A stretch of 64,000 nucleotides of DNA. Origin: Phycisphaerae bacterium (lineage in GTDB: Bacteria; Planctomycetota; Phycisphaerae; SM23-33). This document shows positions 30,281 through 61,949 of the stretch, piece after piece; position 1 is the first letter of the stretch; each line of letters opens with the position of its first letter. The notes beneath the pieces were generated by a model. It did not search any database, was not told the DNA's origin, and saw nothing but the letters and a program-made list of their open reading frames with translations. The DNA lies in contig JAFGJE010000233.1 in NCBI GenBank assembly GCA_016929245.1, positions 1,883 to 65,882 of the forward strand, in the 5' to 3' direction. The position numbers and the translations under genes are program-made.

Positions 30281-30332
30281 ACACCGCCAAACGGCAAGCC
30301 GGAACAAGAATCGGCTTGCCGTTTGGCGGTGT
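30281..30332. repeat. conserved palindromic terminator-like element, copy 1 (ACACCGCCAAACGGCAAGCC-N12-GGCTTGCCGTTTGGCGGTGT)
   Basis: Perfect 20-bp inverted repeat with a 12-nt loop. Sits between the convergent hydrolase (+) and purH (-) genes. Confidence 0.6.
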
Positions 30333-30381
30333 TTGAAATACGGGGAACTACCCACTGTGTAATAATGAATATCGCTCTATA

Positions 30382-32010
30382 TCAATGGTTGAAATGTCTC
30401 GCGCCGGTGAAGATCATCGCCAGGCCCAGTTTGTCCGCGTAGGCGATGACGTCTTCGTCTTTCTTTCCGCCGCCGGGTTCGATGACGGCGGTGGCGCCGG
30501 CTTCTTTGGCCCAGTCGAGGCTGTCCGGGAATGGGAAAAACGCGTCGCTGGCGAGCACGCAACCGTTCAGGTCCACCTTGTCCCCGCCGCCGTACTGCTT
30601 GGCGATCTGGCCGGCGAGGAACGCGGAGTTCACGCGGCTCATCTGACCGGCTCCGGCGCCCAGCAGCGTCCGGTCTTTCGCCAGCACAATCGCGTTGGAC
30701 TTCACGTGCTTGCAGACCAACCAGGCGAATTTAAGGTCCGCCAGTTCCTGCTCGGAAGGTTGTCGCTTCGTGACGACCTTCCAGTCATCGGTGTTCAGGC
30801 CCAGCAGATCGCGATCCTGCACCAGCATTCCGCCGACGCAGTACTTAAGGAACCTTTCCTTGTTCCGTTTGCCGTCGAAGTCGCCGACTTCCAACAGCCG
30901 CACGTCCTGACCCCAGCCTTCGCGGGCCTGGATGGTTTCGATCGCGCCGTCCTCGAAGCTCGGTGCGATGACGATTTCGGCGAAGAATCCGCCGGCGCCG
31001 GCGTCTTTACCCCAGCGCTGGTACGTTTCGGTGATCGCCGCGGCAAGGTCCTTCGTGACCGGCCGATTGACCGCCACGATGCCGCCCATGCACGCGTTGA
31101 CGTCGCCGTAGTAGGCTTTGCGATACGCTTCGACCAGGTTCGCGTCGACCGCGCAGCCGGCGGGGTTGGCGTGCTTAATGATCGCGATGGCGGGATCGTC
31201 GAATTCCTTCACGAGCTCCAGCGCGCCGTTGGCGTCGAAGTAGTTGTTGTAGCTGATGGGTTTTCCGCCCAGAAGTTTCGCTCGGCCCATGCAGGGTTCG
31301 TTGGCGGCCTCCGAGGAAACGTAGAACGCGCCGGCCTGGTGGGGATTCTCGCCGTAGCGAAGCTCCTGGGATTTGGTATAGCTGAACGTCATCCGCTCGG
31401 GGAATTTCTCGTCAAGTTGCTCCGCGAGATACGTGCTGATGGCGGTGTCATACTGGGCCGTCAGGCTGAACGCCCGACGGGCGAACTTCCGCCGCAGCGC
31501 GAAGCTGGTTTCGCCGTTGCCGGCTTTCAATTCCGCGAGCAGTTCGTCGTACTGCGCCGTTTCGGTCACGACGGTGACGTACTTGTGATTCTTGGCGGCC
31601 GCCCGGACCATCGTCGGCCCGCCGATGTCGATCATCTCGACCGCCTCCGCGAGGGTCGTGCCTTCCTTCGCGATGACATCCGTGAAGGGATACAGCGACA
31701 CGACGACCAGGTCGAGGGGTTCCAGGCCGTATTTTTCGATGTCGGCCTGGTGCTCCGGATCGTCTCGCAGCGCGAGGATCGCGCCGTGAACTTTCGGATG
31801 CAGCGTCACCACGCGATGCCCCAGCATTTCCGGGAATCCCGTCCATTCCTGGACGTACCGCACGGGGATGCCCGCTTCTTCGATCTTCCCGGCTGTCCCG
31901 CCGGAGGAAATGATCTCCACGCCCATGTCCGCCAGCGCCCGGGCGAATTCCACGACGCCCGTCTTGTCAAATACGCTGATCAGCGCCCGCCGCACTCGTA
32001 CCGAATCCAT
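30382..32010 (-). CDS. purH: bifunctional AICAR transformylase / IMP cyclohydrolase PurH
   Basis: MDSVRVRRALISVFDKTGVVEFARALADMGVEIISSGGTA... and full-length colinear PurH motifs. Confidence 0.95.
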   Translation of the reverse strand: MDSVRVRRALISVFDKTGVVEFARALADMGVEIISSGGTAGKIEEAGIPVRYVQEWTGFPEMLGHRVVTLHPKVHGAILALRDDPEHQADIEKYGLEPLDLVVVSLYPFTDVIAKEGTTLAEAVEMIDIGGPTMVRAAAKNHKYVTVVTETAQYDELLAELKAGNGETSFALRRKFARRAFSLTAQYDTAISTYLAEQLDEKFPERMTFSYTKSQELRYGENPHQAGAFYVSSEAANEPCMGRAKLLGGKPISYNNYFDANGALELVKEFDDPAIAIIKHANPAGCAVDANLVEAYRKAYYGDVNACMGGIVAVNRPVTKDLAAAITETYQRWGKDAGAGGFFAEIVIAPSFEDGAIETIQAREGWGQDVRLLEVGDFDGKRNKERFLKYCVGGMLVQDRDLLGLNTDDWKVVTKRQPSEQELADLKFAWLVCKHVKSNAIVLAKDRTLLGAGAGQMSRVNSAFLAGQIAKQYGGGDKVDLNGCVLASDAFFPFPDSLDWAKEAGATAVIEPGGGKKDEDVIAYADKLGLAMIFTGARHFNH

Positions 32011-32116
32011 CGCTTTTATGTCCTTCCTGTTATCTTCCGAAAAAAAGAACCTTCATGAAAGCTGGTGGGACAGAGCCCCACCAGCCTTGGTGTTTGGGGA
32101 ACCCCAAAACCGTTTT

Positions 32117-33364
32117 CTATTTCGTCAGCATTTCCGCGGTCAGTCGCCCGGCCTTGGTGGGCCGAATGCAGAACAACTGTCCCGACCGCGTGGCGGTGTA
32201 GATCGCCGGCGCCCTGGTGTTCGGGGCGTAAAAATCGAAGCCGTCCAGCGGAACGACGACGTCCGTCTTTCCGGTGATTTCATTGACGAGATGCAGCTTC
32301 TTTTTCGCGTCCAGCACGTGGACCACGTTTTCCATAATCGACAATACCATTCGGCCTTCGGGCATCTTCCAGCGAACGTTCCCGTTGGTCACGTCGACGG
32401 CGTATAAGCCGTCGTTTTCGATGTACTGGAAAAGCGTCTTGTCGCCCATTTGCATCGGCCCGCCGACGGAACCCTTCACGACGACCGCCGGCCAAAGCGC
32501 CTTCCCGGTGGAAGGATGGAAGGCGTAAATACGGTTGTCGTTGCAGGCGAAAAACAATCCTTTTTCGTCCACGTGGCATTTTTCGGGGATCGAACCGTCG
32601 AACGTTCGCTGCCATTGCTTTTGGCCGTACTTCTCCACGCCGGCGCAGCGGAACAGTCCGTCCAGCGTGCTCATGAAGATATTCCGATTGTAATACGCCA
32701 TCGGCGCGGTGACATTCTGTCCGAGATATTCCTTCCAGATCAGGACGTTGGGCATGAGTTTGATCGCGCAATAATTCTTATCCGCGGTTCCGACGTAAAA
32801 CGACGTGCCGTCGCTGACGCCGGCGTCCGTGGCGATTCGGTCGGGGAAACGAACGTCCCGGTAGGTTTGGCCGTTTTTTCGATCCACGACCATCAGGTGC
32901 GTCATGCTGTTGACGAGAACGGCGTCGAATTCATCGAAGTCGGAGATCGTTTCCGGGTTGGCGATGTCGTTGATGGTGCCGATGCGTTTCGGCAGGCGCA
33001 TCCCCGGGACATGGGTGGGCTCGAAAATGCGATTGGTGTCATGTCCGACGCGCACGAACCATTTGGGATTTCCCACCGCCGCGTCCACCGCGCGGAGGCA
33101 GTGGGTGTTCGTGATGAGATACAGATTCTCCTCCAGGACGTACATGCGCGTGACGCGTTCTCCCCCGGCCAGCAGCATCTCCCGTTTCCAGTAATACTGC
33201 AGTCGAGCGGGCGCCAGATCGCTCGGTTGCGGATGGGCGGACACCGCCGGATGAACCGGTCGGCCTGGTTTGGGTTCCGCCGGCGCGGCGCGCCACAGCG
33301 TCGCCATCAACGCGAAAACCACCGCCGCGAGGACTGCGGGACGACGAAACAACTGCATTGTCAT
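32117..33364 (-). CDS. PQQ-like beta-propeller repeat protein (BamB-like fold), secreted
   Basis: GAGGAG ribosome-binding site 7 nt before the ATG of MTMQLFRRPAVLAAVVFALMATLWRAAPA (signal peptide). Repeated ...DG.LY..D..TG...W... blades. Confidence 0.7.
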   Translation of the reverse strand: MTMQLFRRPAVLAAVVFALMATLWRAAPAEPKPGRPVHPAVSAHPQPSDLAPARLQYYWKREMLLAGGERVTRMYVLEENLYLITNTHCLRAVDAAVGNPKWFVRVGHDTNRIFEPTHVPGMRLPKRIGTINDIANPETISDFDEFDAVLVNSMTHLMVVDRKNGQTYRDVRFPDRIATDAGVSDGTSFYVGTADKNYCAIKLMPNVLIWKEYLGQNVTAPMAYYNRNIFMSTLDGLFRCAGVEKYGQKQWQRTFDGSIPEKCHVDEKGLFFACNDNRIYAFHPSTGKALWPAVVVKGSVGGPMQMGDKTLFQYIENDGLYAVDVTNGNVRWKMPEGRMVLSIMENVVHVLDAKKKLHLVNEITGKTDVVVPLDGFDFYAPNTRAPAIYTATRSGQLFCIRPTKAGRLTAEMLTK

Positions 33365-33434
33365 GGGATGACTCCTCACTCCCGGCGAACGCGAAATTCC
33401 GGATGGGATTTCAACCGTCGCGCGCCGATTTCAT

Positions 33435-33755
33435 TTATGATTCCATTTTGACGTATTCGCTCAGGTCCACGTTATGATCCGTTTCAAACGCGCGCAGGCG
33501 ACGGATTCGCTCCAGATCGTCTTCGATCCGATGCGCCAGTTTGAAAATATAAGGCCGACCGGCCAGGCGGGCTTGCAGGTCCGCGACCATTTCATCCCAA
33601 CGGCCTTCGTACAACTCGTGCTTGAGGATCACCAGCATGCGCTCTTCATTTCCCAGCGCATCGACGAACCACTGCACGGGTCGGCCGGCTTCATCCGTGT
33701 CGGGCGCCACTGGAGAACCTCCGGCTGCCGATCCAAACTCACCGCGGGCGAACAC
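33435..33755 (-). CDS. hypothetical small protein (possibly shorter, starting at internal MLVILKHELYEGRW...)
   Basis: Open frame directly upstream of and co-oriented with the beta-propeller gene. No recognisable domain. Confidence 0.3.
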   Translation of the reverse strand: MFARGEFGSAAGGSPVAPDTDEAGRPVQWFVDALGNEERMLVILKHELYEGRWDEMVADLQARLAGRPYIFKLAHRIEDDLERIRRLRAFETDHNVDLSEYVKMES

Positions 33756-33971
33756 CGCCCCGGTATGGTAGTTCTACACTCTAGTGAAGCCCGCCGATCT
33801 TTGCAACCGATTTGTGGGCGGCCGGGCGGAGAGAGCTTTTCCCGCGTCGAAGGGAAGAGGCCTTTCAGGTTTTTTCAAAGAACTTTTCCTTCAGGTCCGA
33901 TATCCCTCCTGGACGATAAGGGTTTCATAGGATTGTATCCGCGCTCTGGATCATCGGACAAAGGAGCCGTC

Positions 33972-35483
33972 ATGTATCGTAAAACGATGCTGATCGGATG
34001 TGTTTTCGCTGCTGTACTGTTGTCTGCCTCGCCCCTGTCCGCCGGCGAAAATATTGAGGATCTCAAGGAGCAGGTTCGTCGGCTGAATCAAAGGCTGGAA
34101 AAAATCGAATCCGAAAAAACCCGGCGGATCGAGAAGGAAGAACTCGCCGGATTGATGAAGGAAATCCTGGACGAAGCCCAGGCCACCCCCGCCCTGCCGG
34201 ACTGGATGCGGAACCTGACGTTCTACGGCGATTTCCGCCTGCGATTCGAGCATCAAACGTTCCAGGGACGCCAGGGCGGCGGAACCACCGTCGCCAATCC
34301 GCGGGTCGGGGAACCGAAGGATCGTAATCGCATTCGCATGCGCCTGCGCTTCGGGTTCACCAAAACGTGGTGGGACGACCAGATGGAAGTCGGATTTCGA
34401 CTCTGTTCCGGAGACAATTCCCCCACTGGCGCGAACCAGACGATGACCGGCGACTTCTCCAAAAAGCCCATCTGGATCGACCTGATGTACGCCAAGTACA
34501 AACCCAACTGGGCCAAAGGCCTCGAAGTCGGCGGCGGTAAAGTGCTGAATCCCATCAAAACCCGCACGATGATCACCTGGGATTCCGGCCTGAATCCGGA
34601 AGGAATCTATATGGATTACGTCGCGCCGTTCTTCGGGGAATTCAAACCGTACGCCCAGATGGGGTTCTGGATGGTCAACGAAAACGGCACGCGCTCGGCA
34701 GCCGGGATGAATACCGGCGCGACCCTGCGGGACACGGTGATGTTCCATCAGGGGGCGGGTTTCGAGTGGAAGTTCATGGACGCGCTGGAATGGTTCTTCG
34801 GGATGACGTACTACGAATATAAAAACGTCGGCGCCTCCACGGGCGGTTTTATCGGGCGCTACGGCCCCGACGGGCAATGGGCGGACAACGGCCTGGGCGG
34901 ACAGACCCCCACGCAGAACGCCGCGGCGGCCACCCAGGCCTACGCGGCGGCGGATTTCCGCCAGTTGGAATTGACCACGAAAGTCGGATGGAAACTGGCG
35001 TTCCTGCCCACACCGCTGCAAAAATGGATGGCGTGGTTCACGTTCGTGCATAATTTCGAGGACGATTACAACGTGTGGAACAATCCCACCGTCCCCGCGC
35101 TGGGCGGAATCGGCGCGGACCGTCACTTCAAAAACGATCCCAATGCCTACGCCGCCGGATTCCAGGTCGGCGAAAACAGCAAGAAAAACGATATCTCCAT
35201 CGCCTACGCGTGCTACTACATCGAGTACGGATCGGTCGCGCAGGGCTTCGGCGACGGGGCGCTGGGCGGCCCGAACAGCAAGGGACATCTGCTCCAGGCG
35301 ATTTACAACATCGACGATTTCCTGACCGTCGGCGGCACGATGATCCTCTTCCAGCCGATCCATACCAACGACAATCCCGCCAACGCCAATAACGCCAACG
35401 CCGCCAACGGCCCGGCGGTGCTGTTCCCGCACAGCCAGGACCTCACCGCGACGTTCCGGCTGGAGCTGGTCTGGAAATTCTGA
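33972..35483 (+). CDS. putative outer-membrane porin (N-terminal coiled coil plus beta-barrel, C-terminal Phe)
   Basis: AAGGAG ribosome-binding site. Signal peptide MYRKTMLIGCVFAAVLLSASPLSA. Coiled-coil segment ...LKEQVRRLNQRLEKIESEK.... Aromatic/Gly-rich amphipathic strands ending ...FRLELVWKF. The antisense 493-aa track ORF is rejected. Confidence 0.65.
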   Translation: MYRKTMLIGCVFAAVLLSASPLSAGENIEDLKEQVRRLNQRLEKIESEKTRRIEKEELAGLMKEILDEAQATPALPDWMRNLTFYGDFRLRFEHQTFQGRQGGGTTVANPRVGEPKDRNRIRMRLRFGFTKTWWDDQMEVGFRLCSGDNSPTGANQTMTGDFSKKPIWIDLMYAKYKPNWAKGLEVGGGKVLNPIKTRTMITWDSGLNPEGIYMDYVAPFFGEFKPYAQMGFWMVNENGTRSAAGMNTGATLRDTVMFHQGAGFEWKFMDALEWFFGMTYYEYKNVGASTGGFIGRYGPDGQWADNGLGGQTPTQNAAAATQAYAAADFRQLELTTKVGWKLAFLPTPLQKWMAWFTFVHNFEDDYNVWNNPTVPALGGIGADRHFKNDPNAYAAGFQVGENSKKNDISIAYACYYIEYGSVAQGFGDGALGGPNSKGHLLQAIYNIDDFLTVGGTMILFQPIHTNDNPANANNANAANGPAVLFPHSQDLTATFRLELVWKF

Positions 35484-35520
35484 TCCTTTCGAAAATAAAC
35501 GAATACATCATCTGATGTTC

Positions 35521-35576
35521 CAACGACGCCAAACGGCAAGCCTCCACTGATATCGGCTTGCCGTTTGGCGTTGTTG
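35521..35576. repeat. conserved palindromic terminator-like element, copy 2
   Basis: CAACGACGCCAAACGGCAAGCC-tccactgatatc-GGCTTGCCGTTTGGCGTTGTTG followed by GAAAAAGAGG, 38 bp after the porin stop. Confidence 0.6.
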
Positions 35577-35684
35577 GAAAAAGAGGGGGATACAATGTCC
35601 GAAACTCGGTCGCAAGACACGCGCCGTGTAAAGCGGGAGGTTTTTTTTCTATCCGAATGATTATCCTTCGCAATTCATCATCGA

Positions 35685-35739
35685 TGCTCGAACCATTCCC
35701 GCCAGTCGTCGGGAAGATTGTACTGGGCGATGTGCGTCG
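35685..35739. repeat. 55-bp perfect direct repeat, left copy (duplicate of the MTAP gene 3' end) flanking the restriction-modification cassette
   Basis: TGCTCGAACCATTCCCGCCAGTCGTCGGGAAGATTGTACTGGGCGATGTGCGTCG is identical to 37736-37790. The reverse strand encodes ...LPDDWREWFEH. Confidence 0.85.
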
Positions 35740-35967
35740 GAAAGAACGTTCCTCAGACGTGCAAGGACGAAAAACAGGTTAGTTGACAATATTGGAATTG
35801 CCGGTTTCCACGCAAGAGGCTATAACATGGCTTATTCCGGTTTTCCCATTGTCAGTTCATATTTTAAAACCACATCCTCTGGGTGTTGATTCTTGAACTC
35901 GACGATGAGATATACGGTTGTTTGTATATTGATTCAGAATTAACTTCCTCAAAATTTTTTGAAAATA

Positions 35968-36687
35968 ATGTCGAAAATTCACCCGAAAATAAAAGCGCAA
36001 ATTGAAAAAGTCACCGGAAAGCGTTCTTTGGCTGTGATTCATCACATTGTGCAAAACGGTCGAATTACAACCGAAGAACTGAAGGAAATCTACGGATACA
36101 ATCACCCTCCACGCGCGGCGCGAGATGTCCGGGAACAAGGTGTGCCGTTGGATACTATCAAGGTTCGTGGTTCTGACGGCCGTCTTATTGCGGCGTATGT
36201 TTTCGGAGATCCTTCAAAAATAGAGCAACATAAACTCGGTGGTCGAAAAATATTTACAAAAGCATTCAAGAAACTACTTATCGAACAACAAGGATCGATT
36301 TGTGCCGTTACCGGTGAACCATTTCACCCGAGATACCTCTCGATTGATCATCGAATTCCTTACGAAGTGGCAGGAGATCAGATTTTCGGGGAAGACAATC
36401 CTTCGGCGTTTATGCTGATTTCCGCGGCGGCGCAGCGTCAAAAAAGTTGGTCCTGTGAGCAGTGCGAAAATTGGACCGAGGTAAAGAACCCGAAAATCTG
36501 TAAACGTTGTTACTGGGCTTTTCCTGAGAATTATAAGCATATTGCAATGGAGGAAAGGCGAAGGATCGAGATTGTCTGGATAGGATCGGATGAGGTGGCG
36601 GAATACGAACAATTACAAAAAACGTGCCGAAAAAACGGCGTGTCGCTGATTTTATTCATAAAACAGACAATGAAAAAAATTCTTTAA
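35968..36687 (+). CDS. HNH-family endonuclease, putative Type II restriction endonuclease
   Basis: Low-GC gene. N-terminal winged-helix-like segment, then an HNH core ...HPRYLSIDHRIPYEVAGD...N...C.QCENW...NPKICKRCYW... (His/Asn plus Cys4). Tail-to-tail 4-bp overlap with the Dam-class methyltransferase gene. Confidence 0.6.
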   Translation: MSKIHPKIKAQIEKVTGKRSLAVIHHIVQNGRITTEELKEIYGYNHPPRAARDVREQGVPLDTIKVRGSDGRLIAAYVFGDPSKIEQHKLGGRKIFTKAFKKLLIEQQGSICAVTGEPFHPRYLSIDHRIPYEVAGDQIFGEDNPSAFMLISAAAQRQKSWSCEQCENWTEVKNPKICKRCYWAFPENYKHIAMEERRRIEIVWIGSDEVAEYEQLQKTCRKNGVSLILFIKQTMKKIL

Positions 36688-37598
36688 TCAAATAATGTGC
36701 AAGTCCTTTGTCGCGTTTTTCGAAGAGGCAGCGGAATGGTTTTCAGTTTTTCGATCGCTGCGGGGGAAAGATACAAAGACTCATATGTATTATGACTCCG
36801 ACCAAGCAATGTGGCCTGCGTGGATCGACCAACAAGAATCTCACAATGGAATAAGTTGAGTGATTCAGGTAGTTTTTCACCGTAAGTCGTGTCTCCTGTA
36901 CGCCCATCATAACTTACGACGAAGGGAATTTGTTTCGCATTTAAAGCGTTTAATTCCTCAACGAATTCATCAAAAACAATACCCTTGACATATCGATTGT
37001 CTCGATTTCGACATACTCCCTGATATGGGGGATCCATATAGACAAAATCCGTCTTTTTTGTTTTACGAAGAACGGCTTTGAAATCACTCGTTGAAACCGT
37101 CGTTCTGTCACACAATACCTTGTGAACCAGGATGATATTATTCCTCATCGTGTCGGGTTTCATTCCAAGCCGTCGGTGATCCGGACTATTGTTAAATTCC
37201 CCGTTCCTGTTGTACCGAATCGCCGCTTTCACACAACGGGCCAGGAGAAAAAGGAAATCCGCCGGTTGCTGTGTGCGATTGAATTTATTTCGAACTAAAT
37301 TATAATATTCTTTTTCCCGTCCAAGTTGTTCCGTCCAGATTCGTTCATAATCATCCGCGAGAGCAAGAGGGGAAGTAAGAATACAATTCCATAACGAAAT
37401 AAGGGGTTGGTGCGCATCATTCAACCAAAAGGTTTCCGCCACTCCATTCCAGGCGGCCGCAACGGATATCGCAGCGGAACCCGCGAAGGGTTCCAGCAAA
37501 CGGCGCGTGCCTTTGGGAATACAGGAGAGAATAACGGAGGCCAGCTTTCGCTTGCTTCCTTGATACGGAAACGGTTGTGGAACGTTTCGTATTCGCAA
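36684..37598 (-). CDS. N6-adenine DNA methyltransferase, D12 (Dam) class
   Basis: ...PFPYQGSKRKLA...LLEPFAGSAAIS... is motif I. ...DFVYMDPPYQG... is motif IV (DPPY). Low GC relative to the surroundings. Confidence 0.9.
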   Translation of the reverse strand: MRIRNVPQPFPYQGSKRKLASVILSCIPKGTRRLLEPFAGSAAISVAAAWNGVAETFWLNDAHQPLISLWNCILTSPLALADDYERIWTEQLGREKEYYNLVRNKFNRTQQPADFLFLLARCVKAAIRYNRNGEFNNSPDHRRLGMKPDTMRNNIILVHKVLCDRTTVSTSDFKAVLRKTKKTDFVYMDPPYQGVCRNRDNRYVKGIVFDEFVEELNALNAKQIPFVVSYDGRTGDTTYGEKLPESLNLFHCEILVGRSTQATLLGRSHNTYESLYLSPAAIEKLKTIPLPLRKTRQRTCTLFD

Positions 37599-37728
37599 AA
37601 ACTTGTACTTCCTCTCCGCGTTATATTGTTGGAACTGTTTTTATCGCGTAATTATCATTTCGTGGAATCATCGGCTTTTGTCCGATTGTAACGTTTTTTG
37701 TGGAAAAATACACCCGTGATCAACTACG

Positions 37729-38604
37729 TCAACGGTGCTCGAACCATTCCCGCCAGTCGTCGGGAAGATTGTACTGGGCGATGTGCGTCGCCTGGGACGC
37801 CGCCGGGGCGTAAGTTTCCAGGTTCAACTCCGCCAAGCCGATCGCGAGATTCGCGGCGATGCGTCCCAGCGCCCCGGCCGGCCCGCCGCGACGGTCCGCG
37901 TCGGCAGGATCGTCCAGGTCCTTGAACAACCCCCCTCCCGTGAAAGGCTGTCGCCGGTTGCCCATCTCCGCGTACGCGGTGACGTAGCAGACGGCCGCGT
38001 ATCCCATCTGAAGCTCCCGCGCGAGAAACGGTTCGGGCAGGAACGTCCGCGTGACGATCTCCGCGCCGATCATCGAGAGCATGCGCACCTCCGCGGGGGT
38101 TTCCAGGCGCGGGCCTTCCCGCACGGCCGCCACCCCGGAGGTGTGATACACCAGCTTCATGTCCTGAAGCGTTCCCGCCAGCCGGCGGCGGAGTTCCTCG
38201 CAGAAGACGGGAAACTGTCGCAATCCCCCCAGCGGGGAATCCTCGAAGAACGTGCTCGCTCGCTGGTGCGTCTGGTCGATCACGTCGCTGAGGATGACCA
38301 GGTCGCCCTCGGTGATGTTGTGCGTAATCGCGGCGCCCGGTCCCCAGCCGAGGATGCAATGCACTCCGAGATCCTTCAGCGCGTAGAGATTCGCGCGGGC
38401 GTTGACGCGATGCGGCGCCGTTTTGTCCATGCCCGACGCCCGGCGCGCCAGCAGGTAATACGACGCTTCGTCGCCGCGGATATGAAAGACATCCCCGCTC
38501 TCGCCGTAGGGCGTCGCGCGACGACCCAGCGCCTGACCCTGGATCAGGCCGGCGGACCACTGGCGGTACATTTCGTCGTCGGCAATGCAGGCTAAGACAG
38601 CCAT
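37729..38604 (-). CDS. purine nucleoside phosphorylase family 2 protein, S-methyl-5'-thioadenosine (or thioinosine) phosphorylase-like
   Basis: MAVLACIADDEMY... then ...APHRVNARANLYALKDLGVHCILGWGPGAAI... matches the MTAP motif (H..P..VNYRANIWALKELGV). The track ORF has a 30-aa spurious N-terminal extension. Confidence 0.8.
   Translation of the reverse strand: MAVLACIADDEMYRQWSAGLIQGQALGRRATPYGESGDVFHIRGDEASYYLLARRASGMDKTAPHRVNARANLYALKDLGVHCILGWGPGAAITHNITEGDLVILSDVIDQTHQRASTFFEDSPLGGLRQFPVFCEELRRRLAGTLQDMKLVYHTSGVAAVREGPRLETPAEVRMLSMIGAEIVTRTFLPEPFLARELQMGYAAVCYVTAYAEMGNRRQPFTGGGLFKDLDDPADADRRGGPAGALGRIAANLAIGLAELNLETYAPAASQATHIAQYNLPDDWREWFEHR
37736..37790. repeat. 55-bp perfect direct repeat, right copy (native 3' end of the MTAP gene)
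   Basis: Identical to 35685-35739. Forms the last ~18 codons of the minus-strand MTAP-family gene. Confidence 0.85.
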
Positions 38605-39240: not shown

Positions 39241-39435
39241 ATTGTTCAAGGCGTCCGCGTTGATGAATCCGCCCTTCGATGATTTTTGTATTTTCGTTTC
39301 TTTGACTTTCCGTTATGGCATGGTATCTTAACTCCCATGACAGGCCGTCGACGAAAAGAAACGCCGTTTCCGGCGTAGCCATTGACATTTTCAACGAATT
39401 TTATTTTGTGATAACTGTATAGAATAAATAAACTT

Positions 39436-39509
39436 ACCCCGGTAGCTCAGCAGGATAGAGCATCGGTTTCCTAAACCGAAGGTCAGAGGTTCGAGTCCTC
39501 TCCGGGGTA
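39436..39509 (+). tRNA. tRNA-Arg (anticodon CCT)
   Basis: Cloverleaf folded by hand. Acceptor ACCCCGG/CCGGGGT, D-arm GCTC/GAGC, anticodon stem TCGGT/ACCGA with loop TTCCTAA, T-arm AGAGG-TTCGAGT-CCTCT, discriminator A. CCA is not encoded. Confidence 0.9.
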
Positions 39510-39586
39510 ATACTTTGAATGAGAGGAATAGAAAAAAACGCGGCGGGAACGATTCCCGCCGCGCGAGGACTTGTTGGGGTTGTTTG

Positions 39587-48758: not shown

Positions 48759-48836
48759 GCCCGTCCAAAACTCATTCAAAAAATACTTCGTGAAATTCGT
48801 GTAATTCGTGGACACCCTCCGGGTAGGATAGTCCTC

Positions 48837-49205
48837 ATGATCGCCCTTACGACATGGGAATATCGCCTGCTGCTGATCGCGGCCTTCGTTGCGGCGCTGA
48901 TTATCTCGGCGTTTCGGATGGCCCGGATCGCCGGGCGCATCGGGCGCTCCCGGTGGGTGTGGTTCTTCATCAGTCTGTTCTTTACCGCCATCCCCGCGAC
49001 GGTGGTATTCTGGCACGACCGCATGAAAAGCATCTCCGCCGGGTACTCGCAAAACGACGATGACACAAAATCACCCGGTAAAAAAAAATCCCCAGCCGTC
49101 GCAGGCCGATGCCCGCATTGCGGAGCGATTCTCACCGTCGCCGACCGGGCCGCGGGCAAGTGCCCGCGGTGCAAAATGATCCTGGAAGAAGGACACTACG
49201 CATGA
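48837..49205 (+). CDS. small membrane protein with C-terminal zinc-ribbon (CPHCG...CPRCK)
   Basis: Two predicted TM helices, then a Lys-rich linker and a CxxC-N13-CxxC motif. Stop overlaps the cinA ATG (ATGA). Confidence 0.5.
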   Translation: MIALTTWEYRLLLIAAFVAALIISAFRMARIAGRIGRSRWVWFFISLFFTAIPATVVFWHDRMKSISAGYSQNDDDTKSPGKKKSPAVAGRCPHCGAILTVADRAAGKCPRCKMILEEGHYA

Positions 49206-50455
49206 CGTCTCCCGCGAATCTTCGCGCGCGAATCCTGTCCGTCGGAAATGAACTGACGATGGGCCAGACCGTGGACACCAACAGCGCCTACCTCGCGCAA
49301 CAGTTGGCCGGCGTGGGGATCGAAACCATCGGTCATGAAACCGTCGGCGACAATCAACCCGCGATCGTCCAGGCCCTCCGCCGGGCGGCGGAACTGGCGG
49401 ACGTGGTGATTGTCAGCGGCGGGCTGGGGCCAACCCCCGACGACGTGACCCGCCAGGCGCTTGCCGAAGCAATGGGCGCACCCCTCGAACTCGACGAAGC
49501 AAGCCTGGCGAATATCGAAGCCTATTTCCGCAAGCGCAGCCGCACGATGACACCGAGTAACCGCGTCCAGGCGATGGTTCCCAAAGGCGCCGAACCGCTC
49601 CCCAACACGCGCGGGACGGCCCCGGGGATCGCCGCGAAGCTGGGCGAAGCGCAAGTGTTCGTCCTGCCGGGTGTGCCGTATGAAATGCGGGCGATGTTCG
49701 AGTTCGCCGTCGCGCCGCGATTACCCGCCGGGCGAGGCGTGATTTTGCATCGCATCGTCCGGCTGTTCGGAACCGGCGAATCGAACTTCGCCGAAATGCT
49801 CCGGGATCTGCTGACCGACGCCGGGCCTTTGGTCGTTGGAACGACGGTCGCGGCGGGCTTGGTGTCGATCCGCGTCCATTCCCGCGCCGAGACGCACGAA
49901 CAGGCCGAGCGCCAGGCGCAAAAACGAATCGAGCAGATTCTCCAATGTGTCGGCGAGCGGGCGCTGGGCGTGGGCGAAGAAGCGACGATGGAATCCGCCG
50001 TCGGAGCGCTGCTGCGGAAAACCGGCAAAACCCTCGCGACCGCGGAAAGCTGTACCGGCGGGTTGGTCGGGCAGATGATGACAGCCGTCCCGGGCGCGAG
50101 CGAATATTACCTCGGTGGAGTCGTCTCCTACGCCGACCGCGTGAAGGAAGAACAACTCGGCGTACCCGGCGATGTGCTCCGGCAGCACGGTGCCGTCAGC
50201 GAACCGGTCGCCAAGGCGATGGCTATCGGCGTGCGCGAACGGCTGGGAGCGGATTACGGAATCGCCATAACCGGCATCGCGGGACCGGCCGGAGGAACTG
50301 ACGAAAAACCGGTAGGCCTGGTCTACACCGCCCTGGCAGGTCCAAATGGAACCGCCGTCGAGAAACACCTTCTTTCGGGCGACCGCCCCATGATCCGCCT
50401 GCGAGCCGCCCTGGCGGCTTTAAATCCCCTCCGACTGCAACTGCTGAAACAATAA
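49202..50455 (+). CDS. cinA: competence/damage-inducible protein CinA (MoCF-binding domain plus C-terminal nicotinamide-nucleotide amidohydrolase PncC domain)
   Basis: ...RILSVGNELTMGQTVDTNSAYLAQQL...VVIVSGGLGPTPDDVT... is the N-terminal domain. ...TLATAESCTGGLVGQMMTAVPGASEYYLGGVVSYAD... is the CinA C-terminal domain. The track ORF is 5'-extended by 31 aa. Confidence 0.9.
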   Translation: MTSPANLRARILSVGNELTMGQTVDTNSAYLAQQLAGVGIETIGHETVGDNQPAIVQALRRAAELADVVIVSGGLGPTPDDVTRQALAEAMGAPLELDEASLANIEAYFRKRSRTMTPSNRVQAMVPKGAEPLPNTRGTAPGIAAKLGEAQVFVLPGVPYEMRAMFEFAVAPRLPAGRGVILHRIVRLFGTGESNFAEMLRDLLTDAGPLVVGTTVAAGLVSIRVHSRAETHEQAERQAQKRIEQILQCVGERALGVGEEATMESAVGALLRKTGKTLATAESCTGGLVGQMMTAVPGASEYYLGGVVSYADRVKEEQLGVPGDVLRQHGAVSEPVAKAMAIGVRERLGADYGIAITGIAGPAGGTDEKPVGLVYTALAGPNGTAVEKHLLSGDRPMIRLRAALAALNPLRLQLLKQ

Positions 50456-50512
50456 GGTTCGATAAGAATCCATACTTCGCATCCTGTATTTCACTATGTT
50501 ATTCATTCCATT

Positions 50513-50574
50513 TTCCAACACCGCCAAACGGCAAGCCGATTTGAATATCGGCTTGCCGTTTGGCGGTGTTGGAA
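50513..50574. repeat. conserved palindromic terminator-like element, copy 3 (perfect 25-bp arms)
   Basis: TTCCAACACCGCCAAACGGCAAGCC-gatttgaatatc-GGCTTGCCGTTTGGCGGTGTTGGAA followed by AAAGAGG. Lies 58 bp after the cinA stop. Confidence 0.6.
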
Positions 50575-51081
50575 AAAGAGGAAAATATTATTTTTCAGTC
50601 AACAGGTGTTGAAATGTGCGCAAAAAAAAGGCGACCCAGGTACAGCGGGATCGCCCTCTATTGAAAAAACCGCCTCGCGGGACGGGTTATTGCGGATGGG
50701 GAACGGAAAAGCGCCTTTCGGCGCGCAGTGGTACAGAAAAACGAAACCGTCCTATGTTCAGGGATTCAACCGCCTTCGGTACAACCAACTCTCACCGCCG
50801 GTGCGCCCTCCATAGCCGGTGTCCCTTTCGCCTCCAGAATCAAAAATCGCACGACTGCCCAACGTTTGTGCAATGCAACGGAGAACTCATTATACGCCAA
50901 AAGGGGATTTTGTCAAGGGAACTCATGCAATTCCTCGGAAATGTTCGATAGAAATACGGTAGGGTATCCGCGCCGTTCTCGGCCGGCGGAGGCCTTGTGT
51001 CGTGAATGAACGAGTATTCCGGTTTTGCGCGACGGGTGAGAAAATTCTCGCGCCGGACTGGACTTTTCCCGAAAGCGTGGT

Positions 51082-52518
51082 ATGAGAAACGGTATGGAGA
51101 CCGAACGAGAATCCCGGACGGATCAATCCTCGACGTCCTATCTAGGCCGTCGCGTGCACTTAATCGGTATCGGCGGATCGGGCATGAGGGGCTTGGCGCA
51201 GATGCTGCTCGACGCCGGCGCGGTCGTCAGCGGATCGGATTCCTGCGGGAACGGCTCGCTCCAGCGCCTGCGGGACGCCGGCGCGACGGTGGCTGTGGGC
51301 CAGGCGCCGGAGAATCTTCCCGACGGCTGCGAACTGGTCGTGTACACCGCGGCGGTCAGCGATCAGAATCCCGAACGGATCGCCGCGAAGCGACGCGGGA
51401 TCGAGGTGATCAAGTACGCCGAAATGCTCGGTAGGCTGATGCGGCGGAAGACCGGGCTGGCCGTCGCGGGAACGCACGGAAAGAGCACCACGACCGCGAT
51501 GGTCGCCTATGCCCTTCGCCAGGCCGGCGCGGATCCCAGCTTCATCGTCGGCGCGACGGTGGAACAACTCGGCGGACCCAGCGGCGCCGGCGCGGGCGAA
51601 CACTTCGTAGCCGAGGCCTGCGAGTTCGACCGCAGCTTCCTGAACCTTTCCCCGAAGTACGCCGCCATCCTGAACATCGAGGAAGACCACCTCGACTGCT
51701 ACCGCGACCTCGAGGCGATTATCGAAGCCTTCCGCGCGTTTACGTCCCGCGTCGGTTCCGACGGCGTGTTGATCGCCAACGGCGAGGACCGCAACGTCCT
51801 CGAAGCGACGCGCGACGCGCTGTGTGACGTGGAAACCTTCGGATTCACGGATGACTGTCATTGGCGGGGCGAGGTGCTCGGGGACGATCGAGGCCGGGTG
51901 CATCTGGTGATGTACAAAGCCGGCGAGGAATTTTGTCGCTTCACGGCCTCCTTGCCGGGTATGCACAATGCGTATAATTCCCTGGCGGCGGCGGGGTTGT
52001 TGTACCACGCGGGGTTGAAACCCAGCCAGATCGCCGAACACTTGGCGACCTTCGGCGGGGCGAAACGGCGCATGACGCTAAAAGCCCAGGACGGCGGGAT
52101 CACCGTGGTGGACGATTACGCCCATCATCCCACGGAAATCCAGGCCTCCCTGCGGGCGCTGCGGGATTATTATCGTCCCGAGCGGATGCTGTGCATCTTT
52201 CAGCCGCACCAGCACAGTCGCACCCGGTTTCTGCTGAAGGATTTCGCCGCGAGTTTCGCCCAGGCGGACGAAGTCATCCTGCCGGACATCTATTTCGTCC
52301 GCGACAGCGAAAAGGAAAAGGACCACATTTCCTCGAGTGACCTGGTCGCGCAGATTCGCATGCGCGGCGGGTCGGCGCGATACGAACCGACGTTCGAGGG
52401 AATTCTGGAATATATGAAAACCACACTTCGTGACGGCGACCTGGTGGTGACCATGGGCGCCGGGAACGTATGGGAACTGGCCGATGAACTTGTTCGATGG
52501 ATTCGAGAAGATCGTTAA
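51082..52518 (+). CDS. murC: UDP-N-acetylmuramate--L-alanine ligase MurC
   Basis: ...VHLIGIGGSGMRGLAQMLLDAGAVVSGSD...GTHGKSTTTAM... and colinear Mur ligase domains. Confidence 0.95.
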   Translation: MRNGMETERESRTDQSSTSYLGRRVHLIGIGGSGMRGLAQMLLDAGAVVSGSDSCGNGSLQRLRDAGATVAVGQAPENLPDGCELVVYTAAVSDQNPERIAAKRRGIEVIKYAEMLGRLMRRKTGLAVAGTHGKSTTTAMVAYALRQAGADPSFIVGATVEQLGGPSGAGAGEHFVAEACEFDRSFLNLSPKYAAILNIEEDHLDCYRDLEAIIEAFRAFTSRVGSDGVLIANGEDRNVLEATRDALCDVETFGFTDDCHWRGEVLGDDRGRVHLVMYKAGEEFCRFTASLPGMHNAYNSLAAAGLLYHAGLKPSQIAEHLATFGGAKRRMTLKAQDGGITVVDDYAHHPTEIQASLRALRDYYRPERMLCIFQPHQHSRTRFLLKDFAASFAQADEVILPDIYFVRDSEKEKDHISSSDLVAQIRMRGGSARYEPTFEGILEYMKTTLRDGDLVVTMGAGNVWELADELVRWIREDR

Positions 52519-53362: not shown

Positions 53363-53380
53363 GTCGGTTGACGGGTTGAT

Positions 53381-54617: not shown

Positions 54618-54696
54618 GACGCTTCTCACGTTACTTTCCACCCATATCGGATACCCGGCGCTTTATTCTTTTCGTGTTGGTTTTTATGATACTTCC

Positions 54697-55854: not shown

Positions 55855-55866
55855 GCAAAAGTCAAT

Positions 55867-56835: not shown

Positions 56836-56956
56836 ACCAAAGACAATATGACTTTGCGCGGTGGGAATCTTTTCACTCCGCGCATTTACTCAAGAATTAA
56901 TCTCGACAGTCGGGTGCCGTGGTTCGCGGAGCGCAGCGGAGCAACCACGGCACCCT

Positions 56957-58006: not shown

Positions 58007-59418
58007 TTCGTGTTTTTATCATCCGTTTTCGCGCGGCGTTCCTGTTGCTCCAGTTTTTTGCGATACGCCTCCTCGGCGCGACGATTCTTCGCCGCCAGGG
58101 CGTCGAGAATCGCTTCCATGTCCCTGGGTTTGTTCAGCAGCGCCTCGGCCATCATCAGTTGCGGGTCGGCGTTCCAGGCCCGGGGCGGCGGGGAAGATTG
58201 TGTCGCCGGACGCGTCGTCGAGGATTTCTCCGGGCGCGGCAGGACGCATAATTCCCGGCGCCGTTTTCGGATGGCTGTCGCCTGGTCGTCGCGGAGTTTC
58301 AGCGTCACCTGTGGAGCGACGCCCCATTCCTTCGCGCCGCGTCGTCGCTGGATCGGCTGATCCGGCGGGACGAGGAACTCCGCGGTCGTCAGATGGATCT
58401 GCCCCAGCTCATTCGGCAGGCGGATCATGGTCTGCACGCACCCCTTGCCGCGCGTTCGCCGGCCCAGAAGAACCGCCCGGGTGTTGGCCGCCAGCGCCCC
58501 GGCGACGATCTCCGCCGCGGACGTGGTTTTCTCGTCGATCAGCACGACCATCGGCACGTCGGCGTAGGGGGTGTCGGCGTGGGCGCGATGCGTTTGCCGT
58601 TCCTCGTCCCGCGCCAGAACATGCACGATCGAACCGTCGCGAAGGAACAGGTCCGCCACAGCCACCCCGTCGGACAACACCCCGCCGGGATTGTCGCGCA
58701 GGTCCAGAACGATCCCGTGAATCTCCCCCAGGCTCCGAAGGACGTTTCCCAATTGCCGGGCGGTGTCGGAGCAGAATTCGGGAATCCGCAGGTAGTACAC
58801 CCCGACTTTTTCCCCCAGCCGATACTGCCACATCCCCGTCGCGTCGCGCTGCAGGCCTTGCACGGTCTCGACGGGATACGCTTCGGGCGTCAGCCGCACC
58901 GGTCGCGATTGGCCGGTGTCGGCGTCCAGAATCGTCAACGCGACGCTTTGACCCTTCCGCGGCGAAAGGAAGGAACGAATCTCTTTCGGCGCGAGGGTTT
59001 GAATCGCCTTCTCGTTGATGGCCGTGACGCGGTCGCCGCGAAACAGCCGGGCCTTGTGGGCCGGGGAATCGGGCCGCGGGCCGAGGATGAGAAGCCCTTT
59101 CTCGTCGAGCGTCCATTCCAGTCCCAGATCCCGCCCGGCCCCCAGAATGCGGTCCGTCAGCGCCTGGGCGTTTTCGTGCGATACATACGTGGAGAATTCA
59201 TCGAGCCTGCCTACCATCCCACGAACGGCGGATCGCTGGAGTTCCTTCGCGTCGACGGGTTGATAATACTGCTCGCGGATCACGCGGTACGTCTGCTCGA
59301 CCGGCCCGAATTCGCCCCGCCCGCCGACGCGCGGCACGCGGGGCTGGCGCCAGACCAGCAGCAGCACAGCCGCCATCGCCAGCAGGATCGCGATCCAGAT
59401 AAGGTTTCGTCTCGGCAT
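58003..59418 (-). CDS. carboxy-terminal processing protease (S41 family, CtpA/Prc-like) with PDZ domain
   Basis: N-terminal TM anchor. ...LDLRDNPGGVLSDGVAVADLF... plus ...EKTTSAAEIVAGAL...RTRGKG... is the S41 catalytic Ser/Lys region. Confidence 0.85.
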   Translation of the reverse strand: MPRRNLIWIAILLAMAAVLLLVWRQPRVPRVGGRGEFGPVEQTYRVIREQYYQPVDAKELQRSAVRGMVGRLDEFSTYVSHENAQALTDRILGAGRDLGLEWTLDEKGLLILGPRPDSPAHKARLFRGDRVTAINEKAIQTLAPKEIRSFLSPRKGQSVALTILDADTGQSRPVRLTPEAYPVETVQGLQRDATGMWQYRLGEKVGVYYLRIPEFCSDTARQLGNVLRSLGEIHGIVLDLRDNPGGVLSDGVAVADLFLRDGSIVHVLARDEERQTHRAHADTPYADVPMVVLIDEKTTSAAEIVAGALAANTRAVLLGRRTRGKGCVQTMIRLPNELGQIHLTTAEFLVPPDQPIQRRRGAKEWGVAPQVTLKLRDDQATAIRKRRRELCVLPRPEKSSTTRPATQSSPPPRAWNADPQLMMAEALLNKPRDMEAILDALAAKNRRAEEAYRKKLEQQERRAKTDDKNTK

Positions 59419-59646
59419 GGGAGGGAAGTTCCTGTAGGAAGGATGCTAGCAAAAAGCCCCCCAATGGGCAAGTTGCGCCACAATCTGTTTTTTGACCACA
59501 GAGGCACAGGGGACACAGAGTCAAGAAGGCAGAAGATAGAAGCTGGGAGTTAGAATTCGTCCGCTTATTCAGAGCTCAATATGAAGCTCCCGGCTTCTAA
59601 CTTCTTGTTTTCCTCCGTGATCTCTGTGCCTCTGTGGTTAAAGTTT

Positions 59647-61056
59647 TTATTGCGGCGCGTGCATGTACCCCGGGGCCGCCTGCACGAAGCGGGTGCATTC
59701 CGGGCGGAAGACCAGGTCCACGATCCCCGTCGGGCCGTTTCGCTGTTTTTCGATTATCAATTTCGTCAGGCCCGTCGCTTCGTAGGTGTCCTCACCGCGG
59801 TGATAATAATCCTCGTTGTGCAGCAGCGCCACGACGTCGGCGTCCTGCTCGATCGATCCCGATTCCCGCAGGTCGCTCATGCGCGGCACGTGCGTGGGGC
59901 GGTCGGCTGGGCCTCGGTTGAGCTGGGCCGCCAGCACCACCGGGATATCCAGTTCGCGCGCCAGGGCCTTCATCGAACGGCTCATCGTGGCGATCTGTTC
60001 CTGGCGGTTGTCCGCCCGGCCGTAATAGGTCATCAACTGAAGATAGTCGATAAACACCGCCTGGATGTCGAATTGGCTTTTCATGCGCCGGGCTTTGGCG
60101 CGAAGTTGCAGCGGGGTCAGCGTGGAGGAATCGTCGATCAGCAGCGGCGCCTGCTCCAGCGCTCCCGCGGCCGTCTGAAGCTCCGTCCAGTCCTCCGGGG
60201 AAATCGTCGTCCGGCGCAGATTCCGCAGATTGAATTGCGCATGGCTGGCGAGCAGTCGCTGGGTAACCTGCATCTTGGACATTTCCAGCGAGAAAAACGC
60301 GATGGGCCGTTTGTCCACCACGGACATGTATTCGGAAATGTTCAGCAGCAGCGCGGTTTTGCCCATGGAAGGCCGAGCCGCCAGGATGATCATTTCGCCG
60401 CGCTGGAACCCAGCCGTCAGTTCATCCAGTTGCGTGAACCCGGTCGCCAGGCCGGTGATGGCTTTGCCTTCGTGCTCCTGGAGAAGCTCGAACGTCGAAT
60501 GCAGCAGTTCCTTCAGGCTGGTCGTTTCTCCGGTGATCTGCTGCTGGGCGATCTCGAAGATCTGCTGCTCCGCGCGGTCGACGACGGCCTGGGCTTCGTC
60601 GGGCGAGTCGTAGGCCTCCTCCAGGATATCCCGGCTGACGCGAATCAGGCTTCGCAGAAGGGCCTTGTCGCGGACGATGGCGGCGTAGTATTCGACGTTG
60701 CTTACCCCCGGCACGCCTTCGGCGACGGTGACGAGATACTCCACGCCCCCGACGGCATCGAGCTGTTTCGTGCGTTCCAGTTCCGCGCGCAGGGAGACCA
60801 GGTCGATGGGTTTACCCCGGTCGCGCATCGTCAGGAGGGTGTCGTAGAGGATCACGTGCGCTGGGCAGTGGAAGTATTCGCTTCGGAGAAACTGCACGAC
60901 GACGTCGATGCAGACGGCGTCGAGGATCATCGCACCCAGGACGCAGGCTTCGGCTTCCACGGAACTGGGCACGACGCGGGCCAGTTCGTCGTCGAGGCGC
61001 ACCGGAGCCCGATCCGATGTGTATTGCCCAGTCGATTGGATGTCCATAGCCATCAA
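59647..61056 (-). CDS. dnaB: replicative DNA helicase DnaB
   Basis: N-terminal ...SVEAEACVLGAMILD.... Walker A ...ARPSMGKTALLLNI.... RecA-like C-terminal domain. The antisense 558-aa track ORF is rejected. Confidence 0.95.
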   Translation of the reverse strand: MMAMDIQSTGQYTSDRAPVRLDDELARVVPSSVEAEACVLGAMILDAVCIDVVVQFLRSEYFHCPAHVILYDTLLTMRDRGKPIDLVSLRAELERTKQLDAVGGVEYLVTVAEGVPGVSNVEYYAAIVRDKALLRSLIRVSRDILEEAYDSPDEAQAVVDRAEQQIFEIAQQQITGETTSLKELLHSTFELLQEHEGKAITGLATGFTQLDELTAGFQRGEMIILAARPSMGKTALLLNISEYMSVVDKRPIAFFSLEMSKMQVTQRLLASHAQFNLRNLRRTTISPEDWTELQTAAGALEQAPLLIDDSSTLTPLQLRAKARRMKSQFDIQAVFIDYLQLMTYYGRADNRQEQIATMSRSMKALARELDIPVVLAAQLNRGPADRPTHVPRMSDLRESGSIEQDADVVALLHNEDYYHRGEDTYEATGLTKLIIEKQRNGPTGIVDLVFRPECTRFVQAAPGYMHAPQ

Positions 61057-61245
61057 GCGCCCTCCGTAGCATCAACATTCCGTCGGATCAGCCATTCCCT
61101 CGTGGACGTCACCGGCGGGGAGATTTCTCTTTTGTTGTTATTGAACGAAGACACTACGATATTCGCATCCGACGAAAATTGCAAGAACTCCATAGTCCAT
61201 CGCGGGAAGAAAGTGAGTGAGAATCTCTATTGTGAGTACCCTATA

Positions 61246-61341
61246 CTGTCATCCTGAGCGGAGCGAAGCGGAGTCGAAAGACCTTACGCCCACCTACCCG
61301 TGAGGTCCTTCGACTCCGCTGCGCTCCGCTCAGGATGACAG
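61246..61341. repeat. large palindromic repeat element, copy 2 (CTGTCATCCTGAGCGGAGCGAAGCGGAGTCGAA ... TTCGACTCCGCTGCGCTCCGCTCAGGATGACAG)
   Basis: 33-bp arms with one mismatch around a ~30-nt centre. Same TGTCATCCTGAGCG termini as the element at 3105-3227. Sits in the divergent dnaB / DUF721 intergenic region. Confidence 0.6.
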
Positions 61342-61491
61342 CGAGAACGCGTTAATCCTTCCTGGCGATTCCATTTACGCTTTCTTCTTGACCGTGCCGA
61401 TATTTCTGATATCCTCCCTTCCTGAGCAGTTCGGGCGGTTGGAACGGGTTGTTTTTCGTGAAACCCCCGTTATTTTCGGGAGACGCCTGTC

Positions 61492-61875
61492 ATGGACGAC
61501 GCACAACTTCAGACCATCTGGCAGCAGCGACGGGTGGATTCCGGCGCGACTCCGCTGGGGGCGGTTCTGGGTGCGTTCATGAAGCATCACCTCGGCCGGC
61601 GCGTCAAACAGTTGAGCGAACTGGCGATTCTCTGGGACGAAATCATCCCCGCCGACCTTCGTCGCCACACCGCGCTGGACCATTTTCAACGCGGGGTATT
61701 GACGGTGATGGTGGACTCTGCCTCCCATCGTTTCCAATTGCAAACCCTTCTGCGCGACGGATTGCTTAAGGCGATTCGGCAACGATTCACCGGCGCGTTG
61801 GATCGAATCCGCCTTGTTCCGGGGCAATTCTACACCGTCGACGCGGAAACCGGCCGACAACGCTACGAAGTGTAA
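61492..61875 (+). CDS. DUF721-domain protein (DciA-like putative replicative-helicase loader)
   Basis: ...AILWDEIIPADLRRHTALDHFQRGVLTVMVDSASHRFQLQTLLRDGLLKAIRQRF...DRIRL matches the DUF721 consensus (W.EvvG...a.ht.p..l.dGvL.V.vdSs.w..eL...). The antisense track ORF 61375-62007 is rejected. Confidence 0.6.
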   Translation: MDDAQLQTIWQQRRVDSGATPLGAVLGAFMKHHLGRRVKQLSELAILWDEIIPADLRRHTALDHFQRGVLTVMVDSASHRFQLQTLLRDGLLKAIRQRFTGALDRIRLVPGQFYTVDAETGRQRYEV

Positions 61876-61893
61876 GGAACGAGACGTTTTTCC

Positions 61894-61949
61894 AAACAGC
61901 GCCGCGCGGCAAGCCGATATCGATATCGGCTTACCGCGCGGCGCTGTTG
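61894..61949. repeat. conserved palindromic terminator-like element, copy 4 (variant arms CAGCGCCGCGCGGCAAGCC / GGCTTACCGCGCGGCGCTG)
   Basis: Same architecture, 12-nt loop GATATCGATATC, and trailing GTTGAAAAAA. Lies 19 bp after the DUF721 gene stop. Confidence 0.55.

Follow-up and report, generated by a model that had tools for sequence, protein, structure and literature searches.

A family of long palindromes downstream of genes in a Phycisphaerae genome, a probable lineage-specific dispersed repeat

Dispersed palindromes shape bacterial genomes. They mark the ends of transcripts, affect the stability of mRNA, trigger rearrangements and interrupt assemblies, and what is known about them comes almost entirely from Proteobacteria. 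The Correia elements of Neisseria, for instance, lie near gene ends and are transcribed into long hairpins that can be cleaved by RNase III. Repetitive extragenic palindromic (REP)-like sequences are found mostly downstream of genes and between convergent open reading frames (ORFs), and many of their families are species-specific (PMC3733652). Untagged REP-like families also exist, and the Planctomycetes are noted for their many Y1 transposases flanked by repeats (PMC3733652). Furthermore, Planctomycetes and Acidobacteria are the groups in which class 3 Y1-HUH proteins concentrate, and the atypical hairpins that flank these proteins can reach about 600 copies (PMC6006769). In our study, four palindromes were analyzed in a 64-kb stretch of DNA from a Phycisphaerae bacterium (positions 1,883 to 65,882 of contig JAFGJE010000233.1, assembly GCA_016929245.1; hereafter the window, with position 1 as its first letter). 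They probably represent a single palindromic repeat that is non-coding, dispersed and specific to this lineage, and that belongs to the REP, "untagged stem-loop" or miniature-transposon-like kind.

The four palindromes listed in a preliminary description of this DNA were recovered at the same loci by direct reading of the sequence and by an inverted-repeat scan of the window. The palindromy reported there was correct, but the arms, given as near-perfect and 20–25 bp long, proved to be longer (22–34 nt). Copy 1 lies at 30280–30333 and has the form AACACCGCCAAACGGCAAGCCG - 10 nt - CGGCTTGCCGTTTGGCGGTGTT, with 22-nt arms that are 100% complementary. Copy 2 (35518–35579) reads TTCCAACGACGCCAAACGGCAAGCC - 12 nt - GGCTTGCCGTTTGGCGTTGTTGGAA and possesses 25-nt arms with 96% complementarity. 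Copy 3 is the most complete, with 31 pairs in TTTTCCAACACCGCCAAACGGCAAGCCGAT - 6 nt - ATCGGCTTGCCGTTTGGCGGTGTTGGAAAA at 50509–50578; the inverted-repeat scan called it at 50511–50576, with 30-nt arms of 100% complementarity. Copy 4 (61888–61955; TTTTCCAAACAGCGCCGCGCGGCAAGCCGATATC / GATATCGGCTTACCGCGCGGCGCTGTTGAAAAAA) is diverged, and its 34-nt arms are 88% complementary. The GTTGGAAAA trailer, described before as a separate part, mirrors the TTTTCCAAC leader and is therefore a part of the palindrome. The family consensus, of about 55–70 bp, can be written as TTTTCCAACACCGCCAAACGGCAAGCC(GAT)-N6-(ATC)GGCTTGCCGTTTGGCGGTGTTGGAAAA, which in its full form measures about 66–70 bp.

The 15-nt core GCCAAACGGCAAGCC had six exact occurrences in the window, namely both arms of copies 1–3, compared with an expectation of 0 from 100 dinucleotide-preserving shuffles; copy 4 differed from the core by three mismatches. 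The stems of the copies measured 22–31 bp, and the RNA folding energies of copies 1 to 4 were −45.4, −49.8, −62.6, and −55.1 kcal/mol, respectively, with z-scores from −8.5 to −14.3 (the latter for copy 3). The copies were the longest hairpins of the window by a wide margin, the runner-up having 14 pairs. A covariance model was made from the four window copies and two external copies and was run on the window with filters off. It matched exactly the four sites, with 88.1, 86.4, 96.6, and 83.6 bits for copies 1 to 4, respectively, while nothing else in the 64 kb exceeded 16 bits, and no further diverged copy was found by the model in the window. In addition, the Logan contig L006 (2.3 kb, run SRR13394437), an independent assembly, was identical to window positions 48783–51100 with copy 3 included, indicating that the element is not an artefact of one assembly. 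The CinA protein of the window was likewise 100% identical over the common region to MBN1556085.1 of a Phycisphaerae bacterium metagenome-assembled genome (MAG). In Rfam, the sole match above threshold was one tRNA, and the E-value scan gave only a sub-threshold, generic hairpin likeness to miRNA precursors. A literature search for the core sequence found no paper.

A scan with an exact two-arm pattern through one genome per species (185,579 species) and the JGI metagenomes yielded only two further loci. One of them lies on L002, a contig of 3 kb that comes from the same sequencing project and had been assigned to an "Acidobacteria" bin. With its flanks, the L002 copy was 92% identical to copy 3. 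The other, L001, belongs to a Planctomycetaceae MAG (the metagenome contig L003 is the same locus) and carries the same 15+15 core past rpsA, followed by a genuine T-rich tail. In viral contigs, a looser 9+9 pattern gave 58 loci, all of which were unrelated hairpins with other sequences and at most 42 bits, and no blastn match was obtained in plasmids and phages.

The preliminary description had proposed a dispersed repeat rather than independently evolved terminators. The result was in agreement with this proposal and with common descent, for the copies share identical arm cores of 18–22 nt, parts of the loop and the flanks, and orthologous gene ends lack the element. Judged by their sequences, the four palindromes are homologous. 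Among copies 1–3 and L002, 21–26 of 27 arm positions were identical and the central 18 nt were invariant, and only 5–8 of the 12 loop nucleotides agreed. The loop 3' ends fell into sub-types, with AGAATC in copy 1 and L002 and ATATC in copies 2–4. The trailers were of two types as well: copies 2 and 3 share GGAAAAAGAGG, whereas GAA(A)TA.. is found in copies 1 and 4 and in L002. Copy 4 possessed compensated changes (AAA/TTT to GCG/CGC, and C/G to G/C) together with one C-A mismatch. Both sides were altered in 6 of the 28 pairs, and the covariation score was 0.19, compared with 0.10 in shuffles and at most 0.09 when the partner was slid. Wobbles and mismatches favoured neither strand: G-T stood on the plus strand in copy 2 and on the minus strand in copy 4. 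The family keeps its stem sequence; where the sequence shifts, the pairing stays, and the loop drifts.

All four copies were intergenic and lay 12–61 nt past plus-strand stop codons; the individual gaps of 61, 34, 53, and 12 nt for copies 1 to 4 were close to the 20–60 bp described earlier. Copies 1, 2 (ancestrally) and 3 are placed between convergent transcription units. For copy 1, this setting had already been recognized, and it was verified: the copy is separated by its 61 nt from a 503-aa plus-strand ORF (stop ending at 30218) and by 48 nt from the minus-strand purH (stop 30382–30384; Pfam AICARFT_IMPCHas, E=2e-108). Copy 2 follows a plus-strand Porin_5 gene (Pfam), and about 105 nt to its right there is a duplicated 3' end of a minus-strand PNP_UDP_1 gene. 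Since the 55-bp repeats that bound an insertion at this place consist of the PNP_UDP_1 3' end, copy 2 stood between the porin (+) and PNP_UDP_1 (−) before that insertion. Copy 3 follows cinA, ahead of murC-murB-ddl (Pfam CinA, MurC). Opposite to it is the terminator of a small, conserved transcript on the minus strand (about 50625–50882), which lies upstream of murC. Copy 4 follows dciA (Pfam DciA). With regard to a promoter reading of the trailer, no promoter-like site was detected at the copies in the scan.

The orthologous loci of relatives were compared, as the preliminary description had suggested, and the element was absent at the purH, dciA and cinA ends. The PurH proteins of the relatives shared 95% (L004), 85% (L005 and L067), 82% (L068) and 81% (L069 and L070) amino acid identity with that of the window, and the CinA proteins of L007 and L008 shared 74% and 70%, respectively. 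After purH, the element was missing in all six relatives (L004, L005, and L067–L070), and after dciA it was missing in L004. After cinA, it was missing in L007, where two unrelated hairpins were present, and in L008, which had no hairpin there. Moreover, no covariance-model match above 21 bits was found in about 100 kb in total from the eight relatives. The density in the window is 1 copy per 16 kb, which corresponds to about 6 copies expected in 100 kb. The roughly 100 kb without copies and the bare orthologous gene ends thus point to a recent, lineage-restricted acquisition. Such a distribution fits REP- or miniature inverted-repeat transposable element (MITE)-type repeats and not a conserved regulatory site.

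Like REP and REPIN sequences, the element is a short, extragenic, GC-rich palindrome located at the 3' ends of genes and in convergent junctions, with a conserved stem, a variable loop and lineage-specific families. By analogy with them, its RNA hairpins may be able to stabilize upstream mRNA (PMC3733652, PMC6006769). However, REP stems are typically 8–20 bp with bulges, whereas the stems here are 22–31 bp and nearly perfect. Furthermore, the arms have a trivial 3-bp self-complementarity, and the whole element forms a single helix, unlike the REP doublet of a REPIN; no RAYT gene was found nearby in the window scan. The class 3 TnpA-Y1 "REPtron-like" systems and the families of TIRYT and terminal inverted repeat (TIR) sequences are similar in their Planctomycetes and Acidobacteria hosts and in their atypical hairpins or long inverted repeats, which lack GTAG and can occur in moderate to high copy number (PMC6006769, PMC3733652). 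Self-complementarity is also seen in some TIR repeats. The CnGA foot and the GGGGWSAS motif reported for these systems were, in contrast, absent from the hairpin feet here. MITEs with long terminal inverted repeats are likewise small, non-coding and made largely of inverted repeat. The arms studied here could serve as TIRs, but, unlike in MITEs, no target-site duplication and no internal core beyond the 6–12 nt spacer were present, and no insertion sequence that shares these ends, as a parent would, was observed.

Integron attC sites, which occur in cassette arrays where an imperfect palindrome with extrahelical bases comes after every ORF, were also considered and rejected. The palindromes are 5–15 kb apart among housekeeping genes (purH, murC, dnaB), their stems are perfect and without bulges, and their CCAAC/GTTGG is only loosely like the attC R sites RYYYAAC/GTTRRRY.

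A breakpoint was found at the edge of a fifth copy, that of the L002 locus. The Logan contig L073 (run SRR13394437) represents the L002 locus, with 2.1 kb identical to it including the locus-specific loop. It differs from L002 by one T>C in the right arm, and directly after ...GGCGGTGTT an unrelated flank starts with TCTTGATAGATTCCGACTATGGTCATAGGGTATCAC. One locus in the same sample therefore has two alternative right flanks, which part exactly at the arm edge. We infer that L073 reflects true structural variation rather than a chimeric assembly, because overlapping 31-mers (Logan assembly, k=31) connect the loop with the C variant and the new flank, and fewer than 30 nt in a row are shared with any other copy. 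An ORF, MVIGYHIILTGYGHWLPND, starts in the new flank and is truncated by the contig end after 19 aa. Searches of this peptide in Pfam, NCBIfam and PDB gave nothing meaningful, and no family was assigned. No match was obtained by tblastn against plasmids, for which the query was padded to 20 aa with an added proline, and the back-translated patterns gave no match or only chance matches in viral contigs. The peptide may resemble the region of the first beta-strand in Y1-HUH proteins of the IS200/RAYT-like type, which is a lead and not evidence.

The reading as a dispersed repeat would imply that a sequence-specific DNA process multiplied the element within the lineage. One route might be mobilization in trans by a transposase that recognizes the hairpin or the arms, as RAYT/Y1-HUH proteins do for REPs, and another might be recombination between copies. 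The element would persist where its insertion is harmless, that is, downstream of genes. When transcribed, it would form a hairpin of 22–31 bp, which could stop 3' exonucleases, act as an insulator between convergent units or be cut by RNase III. The family, with its unusually long perfect stems, no known tag and a population-level breakpoint at its edge, would extend the catalogue of dispersed palindromes to Planctomycetota and could lead to a mobilizing enzyme. It also matters for metagenomics, as palindromes can cause mis-joins or mis-binning in metagenome assemblies.

Several observations weigh against this reading. The hairpin feet of the four copies and L002 are TTTTCCAAC / GTTGGAAAA with no consistent GTAG, GTGG or CGTC tag, and no consistent unpaired CnGA tag was found at the feet of the four copies either. 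No transposase of any kind was detected in the window by Pfam scans of about 60 ORFs, nor was a cognate Y1_Tnp/RAYT gene flanked by the repeat found within it. Neither a target-site duplication nor another flanking direct repeat was present at any copy. The observed copies amount to 4 in 64 kb and at most 1–2 more from the same sample. Neutral divergence of the loop would demand a strong sequence-level constraint on the stem, for which recent transposition alone is insufficient. Moreover, since L001 has the core with a real T-rich tail after rpsA, some family members may have a terminator role. We nevertheless favour the dispersed repeat. A more specific form of it, which we regard as decidedly unlikely, would make the palindromes the mobile or target part of an undescribed Phycisphaerae REPtron-like system. 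There, a hairpin-recognizing enzyme, perhaps encoded by the gene in the L073 flank, would copy or recombine untagged, perfect palindromes of 60–70 bp with an inverted T/A clamp, which would serve the host as insulators between convergent transcripts that need no U-tract.

The main alternative to be weighed was that of selected terminators or insulators, in which the hairpin stops or pauses RNA polymerase without a U-tract, perhaps via NusG, NusA or Rho, and one optimal hairpin was copied. By analogy with REP and Correia elements, a hairpin of 22–31 bp placed 12–61 nt past a stop codon would be predicted to block 3' exonucleases, perhaps to aid factor-dependent termination or the insulation of convergent units, and to be an RNase III substrate. 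The position of all four copies shortly past stop codons and of three of them at convergent junctions, the very stable stems, the compensatory change that keeps the pairing, and the L001 core with its T-rich tail directly past rpsA would all suit this explanation. The preliminary description had itself spoken of a REP/terminator-type repeat whose termination may depend on a factor or on an organism-specific signal, and had remarked that the canonical U-tract is lacking. The remark was accurate, as no copy has a U-tract and the consensus terminator scan called none of the palindromes; the anatomy gave no support to a terminator-type element or to an organism-specific termination signal. The transcript on either strand is UUUUCCAAC-stem-GUUGGAAAA, with a U-run before the stem and an A-run after it, and the 8 nt past the stem, where a canonical intrinsic terminator has a U-rich tract of 7–9 nt, contain at most 3 U and are followed by A's. 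Bidirectional intrinsic terminators and "I-shaped" hairpins without a U-trail are also symmetric GC-rich hairpins between convergent genes, with flanking homopolymer runs that lengthen the stem. In the present element, however, T stands upstream and A downstream, so that the polarity is the inverse of theirs on both strands and neither transcript gets a U-tract. With neither strand providing a U-tract past the stem, a role as a classical factor-independent terminator is unlikely. The same scan called a textbook terminator at 39538–39564 (minus strand, 12 pairs and T7) after an RpoA-CTD/TPR gene and the terminators of the small minus-strand unit by copy 3 (about 50625–50665), and the relative L067 has a standard terminator past purH (3405–3440), indicating that the lineage uses ordinary U-tract terminators. 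Even the mycobacterial RNA polymerase requires a U-tract, and hairpins without one do not terminate alone (PMC3993855). Furthermore, a sequence identity of at least 40 nt is not needed for termination, near-identity across unrelated loci is not a terminator property, and the orthologous gene ends of relatives do without the element. Selected terminators or insulators are therefore a possible but unlikely explanation, and the palindrome sites should not be annotated as intrinsic terminators.

Double-stranded DNA sites for a dimeric or multimeric protein (nucleoid-structuring, partition or regulatory), with each arm as a half-site, would also account for the strict symmetry, for an arm sequence that is kept next to a free spacer, and for several copies inside a 32-kb neighbourhood. 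We consider them improbable, as half-sites of 22–30 bp would far exceed known operators or parS sites, and each arm of copy 4 is altered at 5 positions with strict compensation, by which the pairing is kept and a fixed recognition sequence is not. A housekeeping site should, in addition, persist in relatives, where it is absent, and divergent promoter regions contain none of the copies. Inverted pairs of a DNA-uptake-type signal are less credible still, and we give them hardly any weight. The palindromes resemble the DNA uptake sequence (DUS) pairs of Neisseria, which act as terminators, in having a conserved word in inverted pairs with a variable spacer after genes. An uptake word should also occur singly and, at high density, within genes. 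Single arms, however, were absent from the window: all 11- and 12-mers of the arm lay in the four palindromes, and a search for the 15-mer with up to 3 mismatches gave no additional site. The conserved unit of 25–30 nt is also much above uptake-signal length, and the density is low.

The neighbourhoods of copies 1 and 4 differ from those in relatives. Synteny breaks at both copies: the gene downstream of purH is different in every relative (L004, L005, L068, and L069), and in L004, PNP_UDP_1 comes directly after dciA, whereas these genes are 23 kb apart in the window. The location of palindromes at synteny breakpoints may be a coincidence at such divergence. To the right of copy 4, a 40-nt fragment (62179–62218, minus strand) is identical to the 5' half of tRNA-Arg(CCT) (39435–39510, plus strand). 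It is inverted, lies 22.7 kb from the intact gene, and stands before an MNT-like nucleotidyltransferase gene in lower-GC DNA; it was likely left behind by an inversion or an integration.

To the right of copy 2, there is a 2-kb low-GC block (GC 0.48) at 35685–37790. Its ends are perfect 55-bp direct repeats (35685–35739 and 37736–37790) that duplicate the PNP_UDP_1 3' end. The block contains a D12-class N6-adenine DNA methyltransferase gene (36684–37598, minus strand) and a 242-aa ORF without a Pfam match (35959–36687, plus strand), and it looks like an inserted restriction-modification cassette. Directly past copy 2, a 21-codon ORF, MSETRSQDTRRVKREVFFLSE (35595–35660), with a Shine-Dalgarno-like AGAGGGGGA, ends beside a T8 run. 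This ORF is probably fortuitous because copy 3 has no counterpart after it.

The small minus-strand unit by copy 3 (50625–50916) possesses a perfect TTGACA-16-TATAAT sigma-70 promoter at 50916–50889, comprises about 255 nt and carries two hairpins at its 3' end, which closes with T8 near 50625. Its promoter and 3' end are kept in L007 (3950–4280) and L008 (11290–11600), always convergent with cinA, and its middle part diverges among Phycisphaerae with some pairs compensated. No Rfam match and no conserved ORF were found for the unit, which is a candidate new small RNA.

The contig L002 carries at least 5 different strong palindromes (440–800 and 2871–2971). The stem of one of them (2944–2971; CGCGGCGGGAA...TTCCCGCCGC) is nearly that of the window terminator at 39539–39563. 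Placement of the contig by its 616-aa protein returned only itself and one homologue of 49%, and its tetranucleotide correlation with the window (r=0.87) was inside the window's own range and hence not decisive. L002 may be mis-binned, because both repeat families found on it are common to the Phycisphaerae window. The second of these is a larger palindromic family that starts with CTGTCATCCTGAGCG...AGTCGAAGGA and has window copies at 3104–3228 and 61246–61341. Beyond the window, it was found in L002 (538–574), in L007 (4310–4378) and at both ends of the Logan contig L071. L071 breaks inside it at both ends, which suggests that this second family has a high copy number in the sample.

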